Shown here piece after piece: positions 20,476 to 24,698 of a stretch of 45,499 nucleotides of DNA. The stretch lies in assembly GCA_964526175.1 (NCBI GenBank), contig CAZGIV010000002.1, positions 1 to 45,499 on the forward strand. The letters are read 5' to 3'. The DNA is from an uncultured Thermoplasmatales archaeon (lineage in GTDB: Archaea; Thermoplasmatota; E2; DHVEG-1). The position numbers and the translations under genes are program-made. The notes under the pieces were generated by a model. The model was not told the DNA's origin. It ran no database searches and was given only the letters and a program-made list of their open reading frames with translations. The stretch's first letter is position 1. Every line of letters starts with the position of its first letter.

Positions 20476-21621
20476 TTATGTGATTATTTCATATTTGAAA
20501 ACCCAGGACATGTATTCTTCACCAAAATCAACAATCACATTTGCTGCATTGATCTCATTTTTACCATCATTATCGCAGTCGCCAATGGAGACCACCGCTA
20601 AATCCCCAAATGTTTCATCAATGACGGCTTCTTCTTCATAGGTGGCACCGTTCCATTGGAGGATATGGATGACATCAGTACCTGCACACACCTCAGCGTT
20701 GCCATCATTATCAACATCGCCCACGTCAAGACCCTCGATAAGTAATCCCTCACCAGGCCATTCCTTTTCAAATTTTATTATGTAATCTGAGCCATTCCAT
20801 TCAAAAATTGTTATCCTAGGTGTGTAGAACCCGATATGAATCTCATCGACACCATCCATATCACTATCTTTACAGATACAAGCAAAAGGATGATTTTCAT
20901 AACCTGATGCGGGAGCGTCAACAAGGATGGTAGGATCAAATTGCTTGGCCGGTTTATCCCAGTTCAATATCACAACCTTATTGCCGGATTCAAGGACGAT
21001 TTCATTTTCCCCATCGTCATCCACGTCACCAAGACCTGCCATGAAGACCTCTCCGTTCACACCAACATCATCCCAATCAGCAGCATATTTCACTAATCGT
21101 GCCCCATCCCATTTGAAAACAACGATTTCAGGAACTGACCGTCTCCAGTCACGACAACTCATAATGAGTTCATTCAGACCATCATTATCACAATCACCAA
21201 TGTAACAATCAGGGTTACCACCACCATGCCATTCTACCCATGGATTCCATGCAATAATACGATAACGACCGTTTATGAATTTATGAACCGTTGCGTACCA
21301 TGAAACCGCGATTTCGTTTTCCCCATCACCAGTTAGATCACCGATAGCAAATCCATCTGAGTCAAGACGACGAAACGGAAAGAAAGGACACCGTAATGTG
21401 TGTGTCTGTTCATATGTCTGTGAATTCTCGTTCCATTCCATGACTCGTAACATCGCATCTCTTCCGCCGATAAGCAACTCATTCTCGCCATCGTTATCGC
21501 AATCACCAATTGGCTGTGGTCCTTCATAGCGTGCCCCATAGAACGGGCTTTTTCCATAGCTCATTTCCCATTGGATGTCATACAAATTGGTAGCCACATT
21601 TAACGGTTTTAAATTCTTCAT
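20476..21621 (-). CDS. FG-GAP/VCBS repeat protein (seven-bladed integrin-alpha-like propeller); the N-terminal signal peptide appears to be out of frame
   Basis: Seven Ca-binding-type repeats are present: GDCDNDGENELLIGG, GDLTGDGENEIAV, GDCDNDGLNELIM, GDVDDDGENEIVL, DSDMDGVDEIHIG, GDVDNDGNAEVCAG and GDCDNDGKNEINA. Confidence 0.75.
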   Translation of the reverse strand: MKNLKPLNVATNLYDIQWEMSYGKSPFYGARYEGPQPIGDCDNDGENELLIGGRDAMLRVMEWNENSQTYEQTHTLRCPFFPFRRLDSDGFAIGDLTGDGENEIAVSWYATVHKFINGRYRIIAWNPWVEWHGGGNPDCYIGDCDNDGLNELIMSCRDWRRSVPEIVVFKWDGARLVKYAADWDDVGVNGEVFMAGLGDVDDDGENEIVLESGNKVVILNWDKPAKQFDPTILVDAPASGYENHPFACICKDSDMDGVDEIHIGFYTPRITIFEWNGSDYIIKFEKEWPGEGLLIEGLDVGDVDNDGNAEVCAGTDVIHILQWNGATYEEEAVIDETFGDLAVVSIGDCDNDGKNEINAANVIVDFGEEYMSWVFKYEIIT

Positions 21622-21828
21622 ATCTATTGTGGTATCATTTGAAAAGGCTATTGAGAGGCCACATAATGAAAAAAAATAATGATCAGAGGAATAAACAAAT
21701 GTCTCTTCATAGATTTATTCACCAAGCATCATATAATTTATCGGAATTATAAATATTTCCTTTGATAATTTAAACTGTCGTATCCCGAAATTACTTCCTC
21801 CTAGAAAAAAACCTTTTATAGGAAAATA

Positions 21829-21849
21829 CGGACGTGGCGGCAGTCGAAC
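21829..21849. repeat. att-like direct repeat, distal copy (orphan tRNA 3' fragment)
   Basis: CGGACGTGGCGG (12/12 identical to 24470-24481) is followed by CAGTCGAAC, compared with GATTCGAAC in the tRNA T-arm (7/9). Confidence 0.6.
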
Positions 21850-21858
21850 ATCCCAACA

Positions 21859-21872
21859 GGAGAGAATTTGGG
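21859..21872. repeat. Inverted repeat, left arm (GGAGAGAATTTGGG)
   Basis: It is the reverse complement of 24445-24457 (CCCAATTCTCTCC) except for one extra T. It lies 9 nt inside the left att-like repeat. Confidence 0.5.
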
Positions 21873-22092
21873 CAAGAAAACCCGAAAAAAACGGCTTTTG
21901 AATTTAATCGTTGTTCGGGAAATCGTTTCTATTCTCACTAAAAGCTTTCTCATTTTTTCTTTCTTTTTTTGGAGGTTGAATTATGCAAAGAGAAACAATA
22001 TATGATCGAATGACAATATGTGAAAGAGTATGATATGAAGATTGAAGAGATGGATGATCTGTATCAACAACTCATAGCTAATGTGATGAACT

Positions 22093-22661
22093 ATGGAAAA
22101 GCAGGTTAGAATCTACAACCTTGACATAAACTACAATGTCATTCATCGAGATATTAAATTCCCTAGACTAGAATTCAGGACAGGAAAATTATGTCTCATT
22201 CTCCCAAAAAACTACACGGAATATGATAATCTAATCGAGAAACATCACGATTGGATCTATAACAAAATGACTTTTGTGAACGAAACAGTAAATAAATCCA
22301 CAGAAAAAATAGTACAGACCGAAAAAACAGTTGACGAGTTGAAAGAACTCATATATGACTATGTAAAAAAAATCAGTAAAAAACATAAGATACACCCCCA
22401 AGAAAATCTATTTCAGGAACATGAAATCAAAATGGGGAAGCTGTAGTTCTAAAAAAAAACCTAACGTTCAACACTCAAATGAAATATTTACCAGATGATT
22501 TGATAAAATATGTTGTTCTCCATGAAATGACACACATTATCGAACGAAAACATAGTCGGAGATTCTGGAAAATCATCTCAAAATCGTTTTCAGATTATGA
22601 AAAATACGAGACATATCTATTTCTATACTGGTTCCTAACACAAAAATATCAATGTTCATAA
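22093..22661 (+). pseudogene. DUF45 (YgjP/SprT-like HExxH) metal-dependent hydrolase, disrupted by two frameshifts
   Basis: Frame 1 gives MEKQVRIYNLDINY...KHKIHP. A second frame gives KKIYFRNMKSKWGSCSSKKK, containing the family's WGSC block. A third frame gives NLTFNTQMKYLPDDLIKYVVLHEMTHIIERKHSRRFW, containing the HExxH...H..FW block. The frame changes coincide with C5 (22395-22399) and A9 (22451-22459). Confidence 0.65.
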
Positions 22662-22767
22662 TCCTTAAATGATTGAAATAGGTATCTTAATAAAGACAAC
22701 TAACGGGAAAATAATACTTTCAGTCACCTTAGAGAGACATTAATATCTGTAAATGTAGGTAAAGAAA

Positions 22768-23601
22768 ATGATGATGAGACAGAAATACCTCTATCATTTC
22801 TTACAAAGTACTCATAAGTGTTCAAAAATGAAACTAGCGAAAATCTTCTTCCTTTTCAACACAGAATATTCAATGAACAAACCGTGCAAATTATACAATT
22901 TTGTTCCATATAAATTCGGTCCGTATTCATTCGAACTCTTCCACGATATTGACGCTATGGAACGAGAAAAAATCTTGACAACAGATGCGAACCATATCTA
23001 TTTCATACATGATAATTCCCTACCTAAAATAGACATCTCAGATGATCTAAACCACTATTTGAATAGATTATCCAAATTAACTGAAAAAGAGCTTATCAAA
23101 TATGTCTATGATCGCCATCCAGATTACACCGTCTTCAGTGAAATCGAAAAGAAGAAGCTATTGGTTCGAGATCAAATCGGTATCACAACCATTGGCTATG
23201 AAGGATTATCCATTGATGAATTCTTCATGCGATTAATCCAAGATAAAATCAATACCCTTGTTGACATCAGAAACAATCCCTGGAGCATGAAATACGGGTA
23301 CACAAAACAAACACTCTCAACACTATGTGAAAAACTAGGGATCCAATATCTTAGTACCCCTCCCCTTGGTATTCCAAGTCATTTAAGAAAAAATCTTCAG
23401 ACAAAAGAAGACTACGAAAACCTGTTTGCACATTACGCTACATATTTGAAAACTAGAAAAGAATATCTTGATAACATTATTAAACTTTCAAAAAAACAAA
23501 AACTCGCTCTTATGTGTTTTGAGAAAGATCCACAATTATGTCATCGACATATCCTCGCAGAAGAACTAAAACGACTTGGAGCTGAGGTGACTATTCGATG
23601 A
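22768..23601 (+). CDS. Fusion protein: N-terminal Panacea/DUF4065 (SocA-like antitoxin)-like domain + C-terminal DUF488 domain
   Basis: 277 aa. The N-terminal half has KMKLAKIFFLFNTEY...YNFVPYKFGPYSFELFHDIDAMEREKIL, resembling DUF4065. The C-terminal half has ITTIGYEG.SIDEF, LVDIRNNPWS, LGIQYLSTPPLG and LALMCFEKDPQLCHRHILAEEL, which are DUF488 blocks. The stop overlaps the next start (ATGA, 23598-23601). Confidence 0.55.
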   Translation: MMMRQKYLYHFLQSTHKCSKMKLAKIFFLFNTEYSMNKPCKLYNFVPYKFGPYSFELFHDIDAMEREKILTTDANHIYFIHDNSLPKIDISDDLNHYLNRLSKLTEKELIKYVYDRHPDYTVFSEIEKKKLLVRDQIGITTIGYEGLSIDEFFMRLIQDKINTLVDIRNNPWSMKYGYTKQTLSTLCEKLGIQYLSTPPLGIPSHLRKNLQTKEDYENLFAHYATYLKTRKEYLDNIIKLSKKQKLALMCFEKDPQLCHRHILAEELKRLGAEVTIR

Positions 23602-24362
23602 CCTGGGAGAAAAAGCGAATAACGATTGTCACTAAAGCATATCCGGAATACAGTAAACGCCATGGGAGTGTTGCATGCACTGCTGGAATAACCGAAGATA
23701 ATGAATGGATTCGACTTTATCCTATTGATATGAGACATTTTTCTGGAAGTGTTAAGATCTCAAAATTTGATATCATCGAAGCGGAATGCACACCTGATTC
23801 AGATAAACTCGGGAGAAAAGAAAGTTGTAAGGTAAGACCAGATTCGATTAAAATCATAGACAGAAGTCTAACAAAACCAAAAGTGGACTGGAATCGAAGA
23901 AATGACATTGTTCTTCCTTTACTCAATGATTCTGTTGAATCACTTCAACAAAGCTACCAAGAAAAGAAAACATCACTTGGTTTAATCAAACCGATAGAGC
24001 TTATAGATTTCATCAAAAATGATCCATTACAGATTTACGAAAAGGACAGCTGGTCATTTACCGTTAATCTTGATGGAATGAAAATACCACAGATAACCAA
24101 GATTCCACACATATTCAAATACCGATTTACATGTCAAGGATGTAAAGGACAAGAACACAACATGCAATGTGAGGACTGGGAACTTTTCGAATCATATCGA
24201 AGTTGGGGAAAAACCTACAAAGATCCGAGTATTCTCTGGGATAAATTAAAGTACAAATATTTTGATTGGATGCTCAAAGAGCGGGATTTATATTTTATCA
24301 TGGGGATGTATTCTCAATATCCAACCTGGTTTATTGTTGGACTGTATTGTCCCCCAAAATAA
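23598..24362 (+). CDS. Hypothetical protein, no recognisable family; putative zinc-binding CxxC...H...C motif
   Basis: 254-aa ORF translationally coupled to the upstream gene. The N-terminus is KRITIVTKAYPEYSKRHGSVACTAGITEDNEWIRLYPI. The central motif is FTCQGCKGQEHNMQCEDWE. Confidence 0.5.
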   Translation: MTWEKKRITIVTKAYPEYSKRHGSVACTAGITEDNEWIRLYPIDMRHFSGSVKISKFDIIEAECTPDSDKLGRKESCKVRPDSIKIIDRSLTKPKVDWNRRNDIVLPLLNDSVESLQQSYQEKKTSLGLIKPIELIDFIKNDPLQIYEKDSWSFTVNLDGMKIPQITKIPHIFKYRFTCQGCKGQEHNMQCEDWELFESYRSWGKTYKDPSILWDKLKYKYFDWMLKERDLYFIMGMYSQYPTWFIVGLYCPPK

Positions 24363-24444
24363 AAAAATCAATGTTCTCCATATAATAAAAATTTCGAATA
24401 GGTAAACACGGATAAAAAAAGCACGAAAAAATAGGGTCTTTTAA

Positions 24445-24457
24445 CCCAATTCTCTCC
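24445..24457. repeat. Inverted repeat, right arm (CCCAATTCTCTCC)
   Basis: It is the reverse complement of 21859-21872 and lies 12 nt inside the right att-like repeat. Confidence 0.5.
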
Positions 24458-24469
24458 GAGAAAGAGAAG

Positions 24470-24490
24470 CGGACGTGGCGGGATTCGAAC
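24470..24490. repeat. att-like direct repeat, tRNA-proximal copy (3' acceptor strand and T-arm of tRNA-Arg)
   Basis: CGGACGTGGCGGGATTCGAAC is the complement of the discriminator, 3' acceptor strand and part of the T-arm of tRNA-Arg(TCT). Confidence 0.6.
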
Positions 24491-24544
24491 CCGCGATTAC
24501 CGACTTAGAAGGCCGGTGCCTTATCCAGGCTAGGCCACACGCCC
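24470..24544 (-). tRNA. tRNA-Arg (anticodon TCT)
   Basis: Hand-folded cloverleaf. Acceptor stem is GGGCGTG/CACGTCC and D stem is GCCT/AGGC. Anticodon stem is CCGGC/GTCGG with loop CTTCTAA. T arm is GCGGG-TTCGAAT-CCCGC and the discriminator is G. No CCA is encoded. Confidence 0.9.
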
Positions 24545-24556
24545 AAAGAGAGTAAA

Positions 24557-24644
24557 CGCTGAGGGGGAGATTTGAACTCCCGCTCCCCTTGCGGAGAACC
24601 GGCTCTCAAGGCCGGCGCGGTGGACCGAGCTTTGCTACCTCAGC
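24557..24644 (-). tRNA. tRNA-Ser (anticodon TGA), class II with long variable arm
   Basis: Acceptor stem is GCTGAGG/CCTCAGC. Anticodon stem is CCGGC/GCCGG with loop CTTGAGA. The long variable arm is TTCTCCGCAAGGGGAGC. T arm is GGGAG-TTCAAAT-CTCCC. Confidence 0.88.
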
Positions 24645-24698
24645 AGTGAATCAAATAATGCAAGGGTATAAGATATCCTTATAAAAAGAGTTGTTCTT

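Follow-up and report, generated by a model that had tools for sequence, protein, structure and literature searches.

The closest described counterpart of the gene pair reported here is PDC-M19, one of the PDCs, a set of 145 single-gene or multi-gene defence candidates that were predicted from their embedding in known defence systems ('guilt-by-embedding'; Payne et al. 2024, bioRxiv 10.1101/2024.01.29.577857). The 'M' in the name presumably stands for 'multi-gene'. One of the two components, DUF488, is also found in an archaeal protein with a ParB fold and a helix-turn-helix (HTH) that binds cytidine triphosphate (CTP) (PNAS 2025, PMC12704722). Here we describe two overlapping open reading frames (ORFs), ORF1 and ORF2, in a 45,499-nucleotide (nt) stretch of DNA from an uncultured Thermoplasmatales archaeon (assembly GCA_964526175.1, contig CAZGIV010000002.1, positions 1 to 45,499; hereafter the window). 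ORF1 encodes a DUF488 protein and ORF2 a DuOB protein, and the two form an ordinary and intact copy of the DUF488-DuOB cassette catalogued as PDC-M19.

The gene pair and its relatives

The PADLOC model PDC-M19A (PDLC04505) matched ORF1 with an E-value of 5.9e-76 over residues 1-270 (profile positions 1-284 of 294), and PDC-M19B (PDLC04508) matched ORF2 with an E-value of 9.8e-54 over residues 4-254 (profile positions 2-262 of 269). The two ORFs lie in the adjacency of PDC-M19, being co-directional with a 4-nt overlap. An earlier note, made from the letters of the window alone, had placed both genes and their ATGA overlap where we found them, as the junction sequence bears out (...ATT CGA TGA, with the ATG at 23598; surrounding letters ...CGATGACC...). 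It had also stated that ORF2 matches nothing recognisable and that no described system has this composition; the full-length matches to both PDC-M19 models, and the assignment of the ORF2 family to Pfam DuOB, overturn these two statements. Literature searches on DuOB and DUF488-N3 gave nothing relevant.

Homologues were numerous for both genes (298 for ORF1 and 260 for ORF2), and the DuOB profile recovered 2284 cluster representatives (50% identity) at E<=1e-3. A locus scan with one genome per species gave 71 DuOB loci, mostly archaeal (Thermoplasmata, Methanotrichaceae, Methanomicrobiales, Asgard and DPANN) with a few bacterial ones. A DUF488 gene adjoins DuOB in 70 of the 71, the sole exception lying at a contig end, and an NTGA overlap of 4 nt is kept in 47 of the 62 loci in which the two genes are co-directional; convergent and swapped gene orders also occur. 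Clustering of all the genes flanking the 71 loci revealed no third conserved partner. The earlier note's view of the pair as a translationally coupled module on a mobile remnant is supported, and the module proves to be conserved. A search of the representatives also returned a protein of 409 amino acids (aa), P0492, in which DUF488 and DuOB appear to be fused into one chain without the zinc knuckle. Either the fusion is genuine or a frameshift has joined two genes at their customary 4-nt overlap.

The pair was found in several settings. In six loci hsdR lies directly 5' of it, and in locus L041 (2338-11573) it is part of a type I restriction-modification operon with the order hsdR, A, B, Schlafen/AlbA_2-HATPase_c_4-Fic-like_C, hsdS, hsdM. 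A Schlafen-type gene adjoins the pair again in L013, L028, L068 and L071. Further neighbours include GajA/OLD-type ATPases, MADS, PIN, ParE and transposases. DuOB homologues are carried on 22 plasmids, 11 of them conjugative, and on a Pseudomonas plasmid the homologue adjoins a HEPN/Toprim gene. On the Sulfolobus islandicus conjugative plasmid pSOG2 (L077, 3998-5358) it adjoins the plasmid integrase, and the 168-aa gene 3' of it showed no DUF488 match and may be a different or very divergent partner. The co-occurrence of the two families across genomes, which had been named earlier as a check, was thus found, and in some loci the contexts (hsdR, plasmids, prophages) are typical of defence or conflict genes. 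A housekeeping role was rejected on the variable neighbours and the patchy distribution.

A tblastn search of GenBank phages showed DuOB homologues in seven records of Gordonia temperate phages, which correspond to five named phages, two being present twice. In phage Nymphadora (L076, NC_031061, 3980-5277), gp43 is the DuOB protein, and the convergent gp42 (150 aa), annotated 'HipA toxin?', is a DUF488 protein (E 1.2e-29). The immunity repressor gp44 stands on one side of the pair and the integrase gp39 on the other, and the same arrangement was observed in BatStarr, TimTam, Eviarto and Herod. Such a repressor-integrase block is a typical place for prophage-expressed defence genes; for example, the defence genes 43 and 44 of phage CarolAnn adjoin the repressor gene (PMC6426606). 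In that study Nymphadora was used only as an attacking phage, and data on gp42 and gp43 are absent from it.

Domains of the two proteins

The C-terminal half of ORF1, which the earlier note had assigned to DUF488, indeed matched PF04343 (E 3.7e-29, residues 148-266) with 102.3 bits against a gathering score of 22.2. The model of the 'active' subclade, DUF488-N3a, passed its cut-off with 31.5 bits against 27, whereas DUF488-N3i remained below threshold (22 against 27), and DUF4326 gave secondary, weaker matches. In the putative catalytic loop, C250, E252, C258, H259 and R260 are invariant in all 49 sequences of the ORF1 family. The AlphaFold model of ORF1 (predicted local distance difference test, pLDDT, of 90.7) showed that this loop is flanked by a strand (residues 245-250) and a helix (residues 259-269); in phosphatase and rhodanese folds, the phosphate-binding loop lies between a strand and a helix. 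The DUF488 domain is thus apparently of the active form. Foldseek searches with the whole ORF1 model returned only weak matches, namely CbiL-type methylases, RapZ and dual-specificity phosphatases, which all belong to the methylase/RapZ/phosphatase fold group, in agreement with the placement of DUF4326, a relative of DUF488, as a member of the rhodanese-phosphatase clade or superfamily (PMC9503650). DUF488 is also present in two other PADLOC candidates, PDC-M45B and PDC-M45C. A RapZ-C/DUF488/DUF4326 clade was reportedly defined by Burroughs and Aravind in 2023, who are said to have predicted DNA-end processing in conflict systems. When the DUF488 and DuOB profiles were searched against the sequences of the Protein Data Bank (PDB), no relative with a solved structure emerged, and the N-terminal domain gave only weak matches.

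The N-terminal domain of ORF1 had been described as resembling Panacea, a resemblance that held at the family level and remotely, while ORF1 itself gave no match to SocA_Panacea (PF13274) at E<=1 in the Pfam scan and likewise none in the NCBIfam scan. PF13274 was matched by 14 of the 49 ORF1-family members (best E 1.7e-5). The N-domain profile retrieved stand-alone proteins labelled YwgA or 'SocA-like Panacea'; among such relatives, P0341 scores above the PF13274 cut-off, and UniRef gives P0302 the name Panacea. The same profile aligned with the C-terminal domain of DarG (7yk3_B, E 0.012), with the common motif F-x-P-x-x-Y-G-P-Y-S. From these profile comparisons, the domain appears to be a remote and divergent relative of Panacea, YwgA and the DarG C-terminal domain, for which 'Panacea-like' is a fair term. 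In addition, residues 86-127 of ORF1 (23023-23148; ELIKYVYDRHPDYTVFSEI) aligned with DEK_C, the C-terminal DNA-binding domain of DEK (1q1v, E 0.014), which suggests a second small helical unit of the DNA-binding type after the Panacea-like part.

The module that precedes DUF488 differs among the loci. It is Panacea-like in most euryarchaeal loci, whereas ParB_N+HTH_ParB replaces it in the Asgard loci L048, L052 and L055, and a weak, possibly MazE-like match was found in L042. No extra N-terminal domain is present in the DUF488 partners of L045, L065, L066, the Pseudomonas plasmid and phage Nymphadora, which are 143-196 aa long. The functional core is DUF488 plus DuOB, because the N-terminal module of the DUF488 partner varies or is missing, and the Panacea-like domain is an exchangeable accessory of the DNA-binding or adaptor type.

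Three further arrangements of these modules were observed. In the Asgard metagenome-assembled genomes, the ParB_N+HTH_ParB+DUF488 genes lie 3' of DuOB (L048, 1521-2585; L052, 6905-7972; L055, 6675-7850) and tie the cassette to the CTP-binding ParB-fold/DUF488 fusions of PMC12704722. On a metagenome contig with a coverage of 1.4x (L074, 3562-4358), the N-domain (154 aa) and DUF488 (122 aa) occur as separate ORFs beside a phage-type integrase, possibly as an assembly artefact. A stand-alone N-domain gene in L072 adjoins an N6_N4 methyltransferase-HNH gene.

Direct Pfam and NCBIfam scans of ORF2 returned nothing, including DuOB (PF22557, the Pfam 'dual OB-containing domain') at E<=1, and no toxin family was matched in Pfam, NCBIfam or PADLOC. 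The family assignment came from the relatives: PF22557 was matched by 10 of 46 close relatives (best E 1.1e-6), and precomputed assignments of PF22557 exist for the homologues P0008, P0028, P0030 and P0041. The structure model of ORF2 (pLDDT 91.7) is largely composed of beta strands. Foldseek searches with it gave the tandem-OB DNA binders Teb1, HIN-200, RPA, CST and POT1 in the PDB and baculovirus LEF-3 in BFVD, and ORF2 is predicted by this model to contain two OB folds. The CxxC-x4-H-x3-C motif that the earlier note had pointed out is present as a CCHC zinc knuckle, which, together with the adjoining acidic and aromatic EDWE motif, is invariant or nearly so across the 46 relatives. The N-terminal block that had looked conserved contains five invariant residues in these relatives (C27, G30, R39, Y41 and P42). 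The mean column identity is 59% in the ORF2 family (46 sequences) against 43% in the ORF1 family (49 sequences).

The islet and its integration scar

The guanine-plus-cytosine content is 0.31-0.37 over about 21500-24500, compared to about 0.42-0.48 in the flanks, so that the islet around the pair is A+T-rich, as had been noted earlier. The description of it as tRNA-flanked applies to one side only: true tRNA genes stand on that side, and the other side bears a 21-nt repeat of the 3' end of tRNA-Arg, which is identical to the gene at 19 of 21 bases with two mismatches (no match expected by chance in 100 shuffles). The A+T-rich islet between these repeats is 2.6 kb long. Two arms of an imperfect inverted repeat, 24 nt each, are 75% complementary and may be due to chance. 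No integrase gene was present in the islet, where the ORFs of at least 50 aa between 21622 and 24469 are the pieces of a YgjP-like gene and the pair only. Since the 2.6-kb segment lies between direct repeats of this 3' end, it looks like the scar of an element integrated into the tRNA-Arg 3' end, and because no integrase gene lies between the repeats, we call the element a remnant. The coordinates of these features are given with those of the pair in the table.

Table. Features of the DUF488-DuOB locus in the window (positions of the whole stretch)
Feature	Position	Strand	Basis or remark
ORF1 = PDC-M19A, 277 aa, Panacea/YwgA/DarG-CTD-like (C-terminal domain) N-domain + DUF488	22768-23601	+	PADLOC PDLC04505
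ORF2 = PDC-M19B, 254 aa, DuOB (tandem OB-fold) protein	23598-24362	+	PADLOC PDLC04508
ATGA start/stop overlap of ORF1 and ORF2, translational coupling	23598-23601	+	Junction sequence
Winged-helix-type N-domain of ORF1, aa 1 to about 132, motif F45-x-P47-Y-K-F-G51-P-Y-S54-F	22768-23163	+	Profile comparisons
DUF488 domain of ORF1, aa about 136-277, rhodanese-phosphatase-type fold	23173-23598	+	PF04343, DUF488-N3a
Putative catalytic loop of ORF1, C250-F-E252-K-D-P-Q-L-C258-H259-R260	23515-23547	+	Strand end to helix start
CCHC zinc knuckle of ORF2, C179-x2-C182-x4-H187-x3-C191, then E192-D-W-E195 motif	24132-24170	+	Alignment columns
YgjP-like/WLM zinc metallopeptidase gene (HEMTH motif), frameshifted	22093-22661	+	PF01863 E 8.1e-14, C-terminal piece
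tRNA-Arg(TCT) 3'-end copy, 21 nt, left att-like islet boundary	21829-21849	+	Repeat comparison
Imperfect inverted repeat, left arm, just inside the direct repeat	21859-21882	none	Partner 24434-24457
Inverted repeat, right arm, just inside the tRNA boundary	24434-24457	none	Partner 21859-21882
tRNA-Arg(TCT)	24469-24544	-	ARAGORN; 3' end 24470-24490 = right-hand direct repeat, likely integration target
tRNA-Ser(TGA)	24556-24645	-	ARAGORN; neighbouring host gene

The pair is not alone in the islet, as had been thought, since a frameshifted YgjP-like gene is also present there. This gene has two frameshifts at A-runs (near 22430 and at 22451-22459), and a three-frame translation showed KWGSCSS in frame 2 and KKNLTFNTQMKYLP...HEMTH in frame 0. 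It is probably a pseudogene; alternatively, the frameshifts are homopolymer sequencing errors. A YgjP-like piece likewise lies directly 5' of the DUF488-DuOB pair in L007. An empty-site search through metagenome relatives of the flanking FG-GAP gene gave three loci, none with tRNA synteny, and was uninformative.

Proposed working and comparison with known systems

We propose, at about an even chance of being right, that the DUF488-DuOB pair forms a mobile conflict module: DuOB would bind DNA, the DUF488 enzyme would process a nucleotide or the terminus of a nucleic acid, and the N-domain would target or regulate this enzyme. What the analysis shows is which domains the proteins have, how strictly the two genes are linked, that their coupling is conserved, and that the pair occurs in contexts of a mobile or defence type. 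Through the ATGA overlap, ORF1 and ORF2 would be co-produced in a fixed proportion. ORF2, with its two predicted OB folds and CCHC knuckle, would bind nucleic acid, most likely single-stranded DNA (ssDNA) or the DNA ends of an element that is invading or replicating. In ORF1, DUF488 would be a cysteine-based enzyme of the rhodanese-phosphatase fold with the loop C250...C258-H-R260, and it would act on a nucleotide or, at the end of a nucleic acid, on a phosphate or sugar-phosphate group. The Panacea/YwgA-like N-domain may serve as a lineage-specific targeting or regulatory adaptor, whose place is taken elsewhere by ParB-N plus HTH or left empty. We infer the nucleic-acid substrate, the chemistry and a protection against viruses or plasmids.

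A wider version of this proposal is that DUF488-DuOB is a genuine and mechanistically new immune system, mainly archaeal (including Asgard) and also present on plasmids and temperate phages. In it, foreign ssDNA or DNA ends would be recognised by an SSB/HIN-like (SSB, single-stranded-DNA-binding protein) zinc protein with a double OB, which would direct a cysteine-dependent enzyme of the rhodanese-phosphatase fold to alter the nucleic-acid terminus chemically, under interchangeable Panacea-like or ParB-CTPase control modules. We regard this version as doubtful, though appreciably possible; if true, it would involve a terminus chemistry not yet seen in any characterised defence system.

Several observations weigh against the conflict-module proposal. 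No experimental test or naming of PDC-M19 was found in the literature, and the PDCs are predictions. Neither a solved DUF488 structure nor a known substrate was found by the PDB profile search and Foldseek. The TM-scores of the ORF2 Foldseek matches are low (0.26-0.35), and the OB assignment says little about the ligand. The mean column identity of DuOB is unusually high for an immune sensor. Housekeeping genes are the neighbours in most of the 71 loci, the enrichment in defence islands is modest, and a pattern scan of IMG/VR for DuOB gave no relative.

The order of the genes, with A upstream, B downstream and a 4-nt overlap, would also fit a type II toxin-antitoxin or abortive-infection pair in the style of PanAT or DarTG. 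DuOB would then act as the toxin by coating or blocking ssDNA or RNA, and ORF1 would be the antitoxin, with the Panacea-like domain sequestering DuOB and DUF488 reversing the damage enzymatically as the DarG macrodomain does. The downstream protein is the more conserved of the two, the N-domain is related to Panacea and shares its F-x-P-x-x-Y-G-P-Y-S motif with the DarG C-terminal domain, the layout of an enzyme domain with a Panacea-like domain mirrors DarG, and the PIN and ParE toxin-antitoxin neighbours and the carriage on mobile elements are consistent with this explanation as well. However, many of the DUF488 genes linked to DuOB lack the Panacea-like domain or carry another in its place, some loci have the two genes convergent or in swapped order, an apparent DUF488-DuOB fusion exists, DuOB has no recognisable toxin or enzyme domain, and there is no DarT-like or macro domain; we consider this explanation unlikely. 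The earlier note had read the pair as a toxin-antitoxin or defence module. Its defence part stands, as a candidate, whereas the antitoxin logic is weakened because only DUF488 and DuOB are constant across the family, relatives have another N-terminal domain or none in place of the Panacea-like one, and one apparent DUF488-DuOB fusion exists.

It is likewise improbable, in our judgement, that the pair assists mobile elements and their hosts in maintaining or repairing DNA and is not an immune system. In such a role, an SSB-like DuOB and a DNA-end-processing DUF488 would help plasmids and prophages to replicate, partition, integrate or mend their ends, and the association with restriction-modification would reflect the hitch-hiking of mobile DNA. 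The fusion of the Asgard partner enzyme to ParB_N+HTH_ParB, a kind of protein that binds CTP (PMC12704722), the structural likeness of ORF2 to RPA, Teb1, POT1, CST and the baculovirus replication SSB LEF-3, the high sequence conservation of DuOB, the carriage on conjugative plasmids, the integrase neighbours and the many loci among housekeeping genes all speak for it. Against it stand a patchy, single-copy distribution with variable neighbours, the position of the pair inside type I restriction-modification operons between hsdR and hsdS/M, and its survival in the window on a remnant without integrase or replication functions. In addition, the temperate-phage pair occupies a lysogenically expressed repressor-integrase block, a typical prophage-defence position (compare CarolAnn 43/44, PMC6426606). 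The explanation that the adjacency of ORF1 and ORF2 is fortuitous, or that the ORFs are not real genes, can draw on the purely mechanical nature of the ORF lists and on nothing else; hundreds of full-length homologues, the adjacency of DUF488 and DuOB in 70 of 71 loci, the conserved 4-nt overlap and the confident structure models leave it a negligible probability, and we take it as refuted by the homologue numbers, the adjacency and the overlap.

For now, the window locus belongs to a candidate family that is already in the catalogue, and it contributes to this family a clean archaeal case that lies on an integration scar open to dating. DUF488 is a large, biochemically uncharacterised family, and DuOB has no studied member. 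Their near-obligate pairing across archaeal phyla, plasmids and phages, and its contexts in restriction-modification operons and in prophage immunity cassettes, make the pair a credible candidate conflict system, and the survey shows that the Panacea-like domain is an exchangeable adaptor and not the core of the system. Proof of a defence role and of a new chemistry at nucleic-acid ends would make the pair a notable addition to archaeal immunity. Tractable systems are offered by Nymphadora genes 42 and 43 in G. terrae and by the homologues on Sulfolobus conjugative plasmids.

Comparison with DarTG showed that the N-domain of ORF1 aligns with the C-terminal domain of DarG, that ORF1 and DarG both join this domain to an enzyme domain, and that the partner handles ssDNA in DarTG and at least resembles an ssDNA binder in the case of ORF2. 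However, ORF1 has no macrodomain and ORF2 no match to the DarT ADP-ribosyltransferase in Pfam, NCBIfam or PADLOC, and the domain order is reversed. The ORF1 matches are also weak, with E-values of 0.012-0.03 against the PDB and an NCBIfam DarG match of 18.5 bits against a cut-off of 250 bits that covers model positions 177-239 only. PanAT, in which a Panacea/DUF4065/SocA antitoxin is paired with diverse toxins, has in common with the window locus a remote homology of the N-domain and an upstream gene coupled to an unrelated partner. It differs in that ORF1 lacks a PF13274 match, that in ORF1 the Panacea-like domain is joined to a conserved enzyme, that members of the DuOB-linked family can do without this domain, and that no toxin domain is recognisable.

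The archaeal fusions of a ParB-CTPase fold, HTH and DUF488 (PMC12704722) share the C-terminal enzyme with the Asgard relatives of the cassette, which likewise carry another DNA-handling module at the N-terminus. ORF1, in contrast, has a Panacea-like domain and no ParB fold, and thus CTP binding by ORF1 is not expected. RPA, Teb1, POT1, CST, the HIN-200 proteins (AIM2, IFI16 and p204) and LEF-3 are the best structural matches of the ORF2 model, although at TM-scores of 0.26-0.35 and 6-14% identity and with no relationship at the sequence level, and ORF2 additionally possesses the CCHC zinc knuckle and the invariant EDWE motif. The likeness is closest to PDC-M19: ORF1 and ORF2 match its A and B models end to end and are adjacent and co-directional, and relatives of the cassette are embedded in type I restriction-modification loci, as guilt-by-embedding requires. 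The window copy differs in being archaeal and in standing alone beside tRNA genes, and not inside a defence system, on a decayed integrated element; in structure there is no difference.

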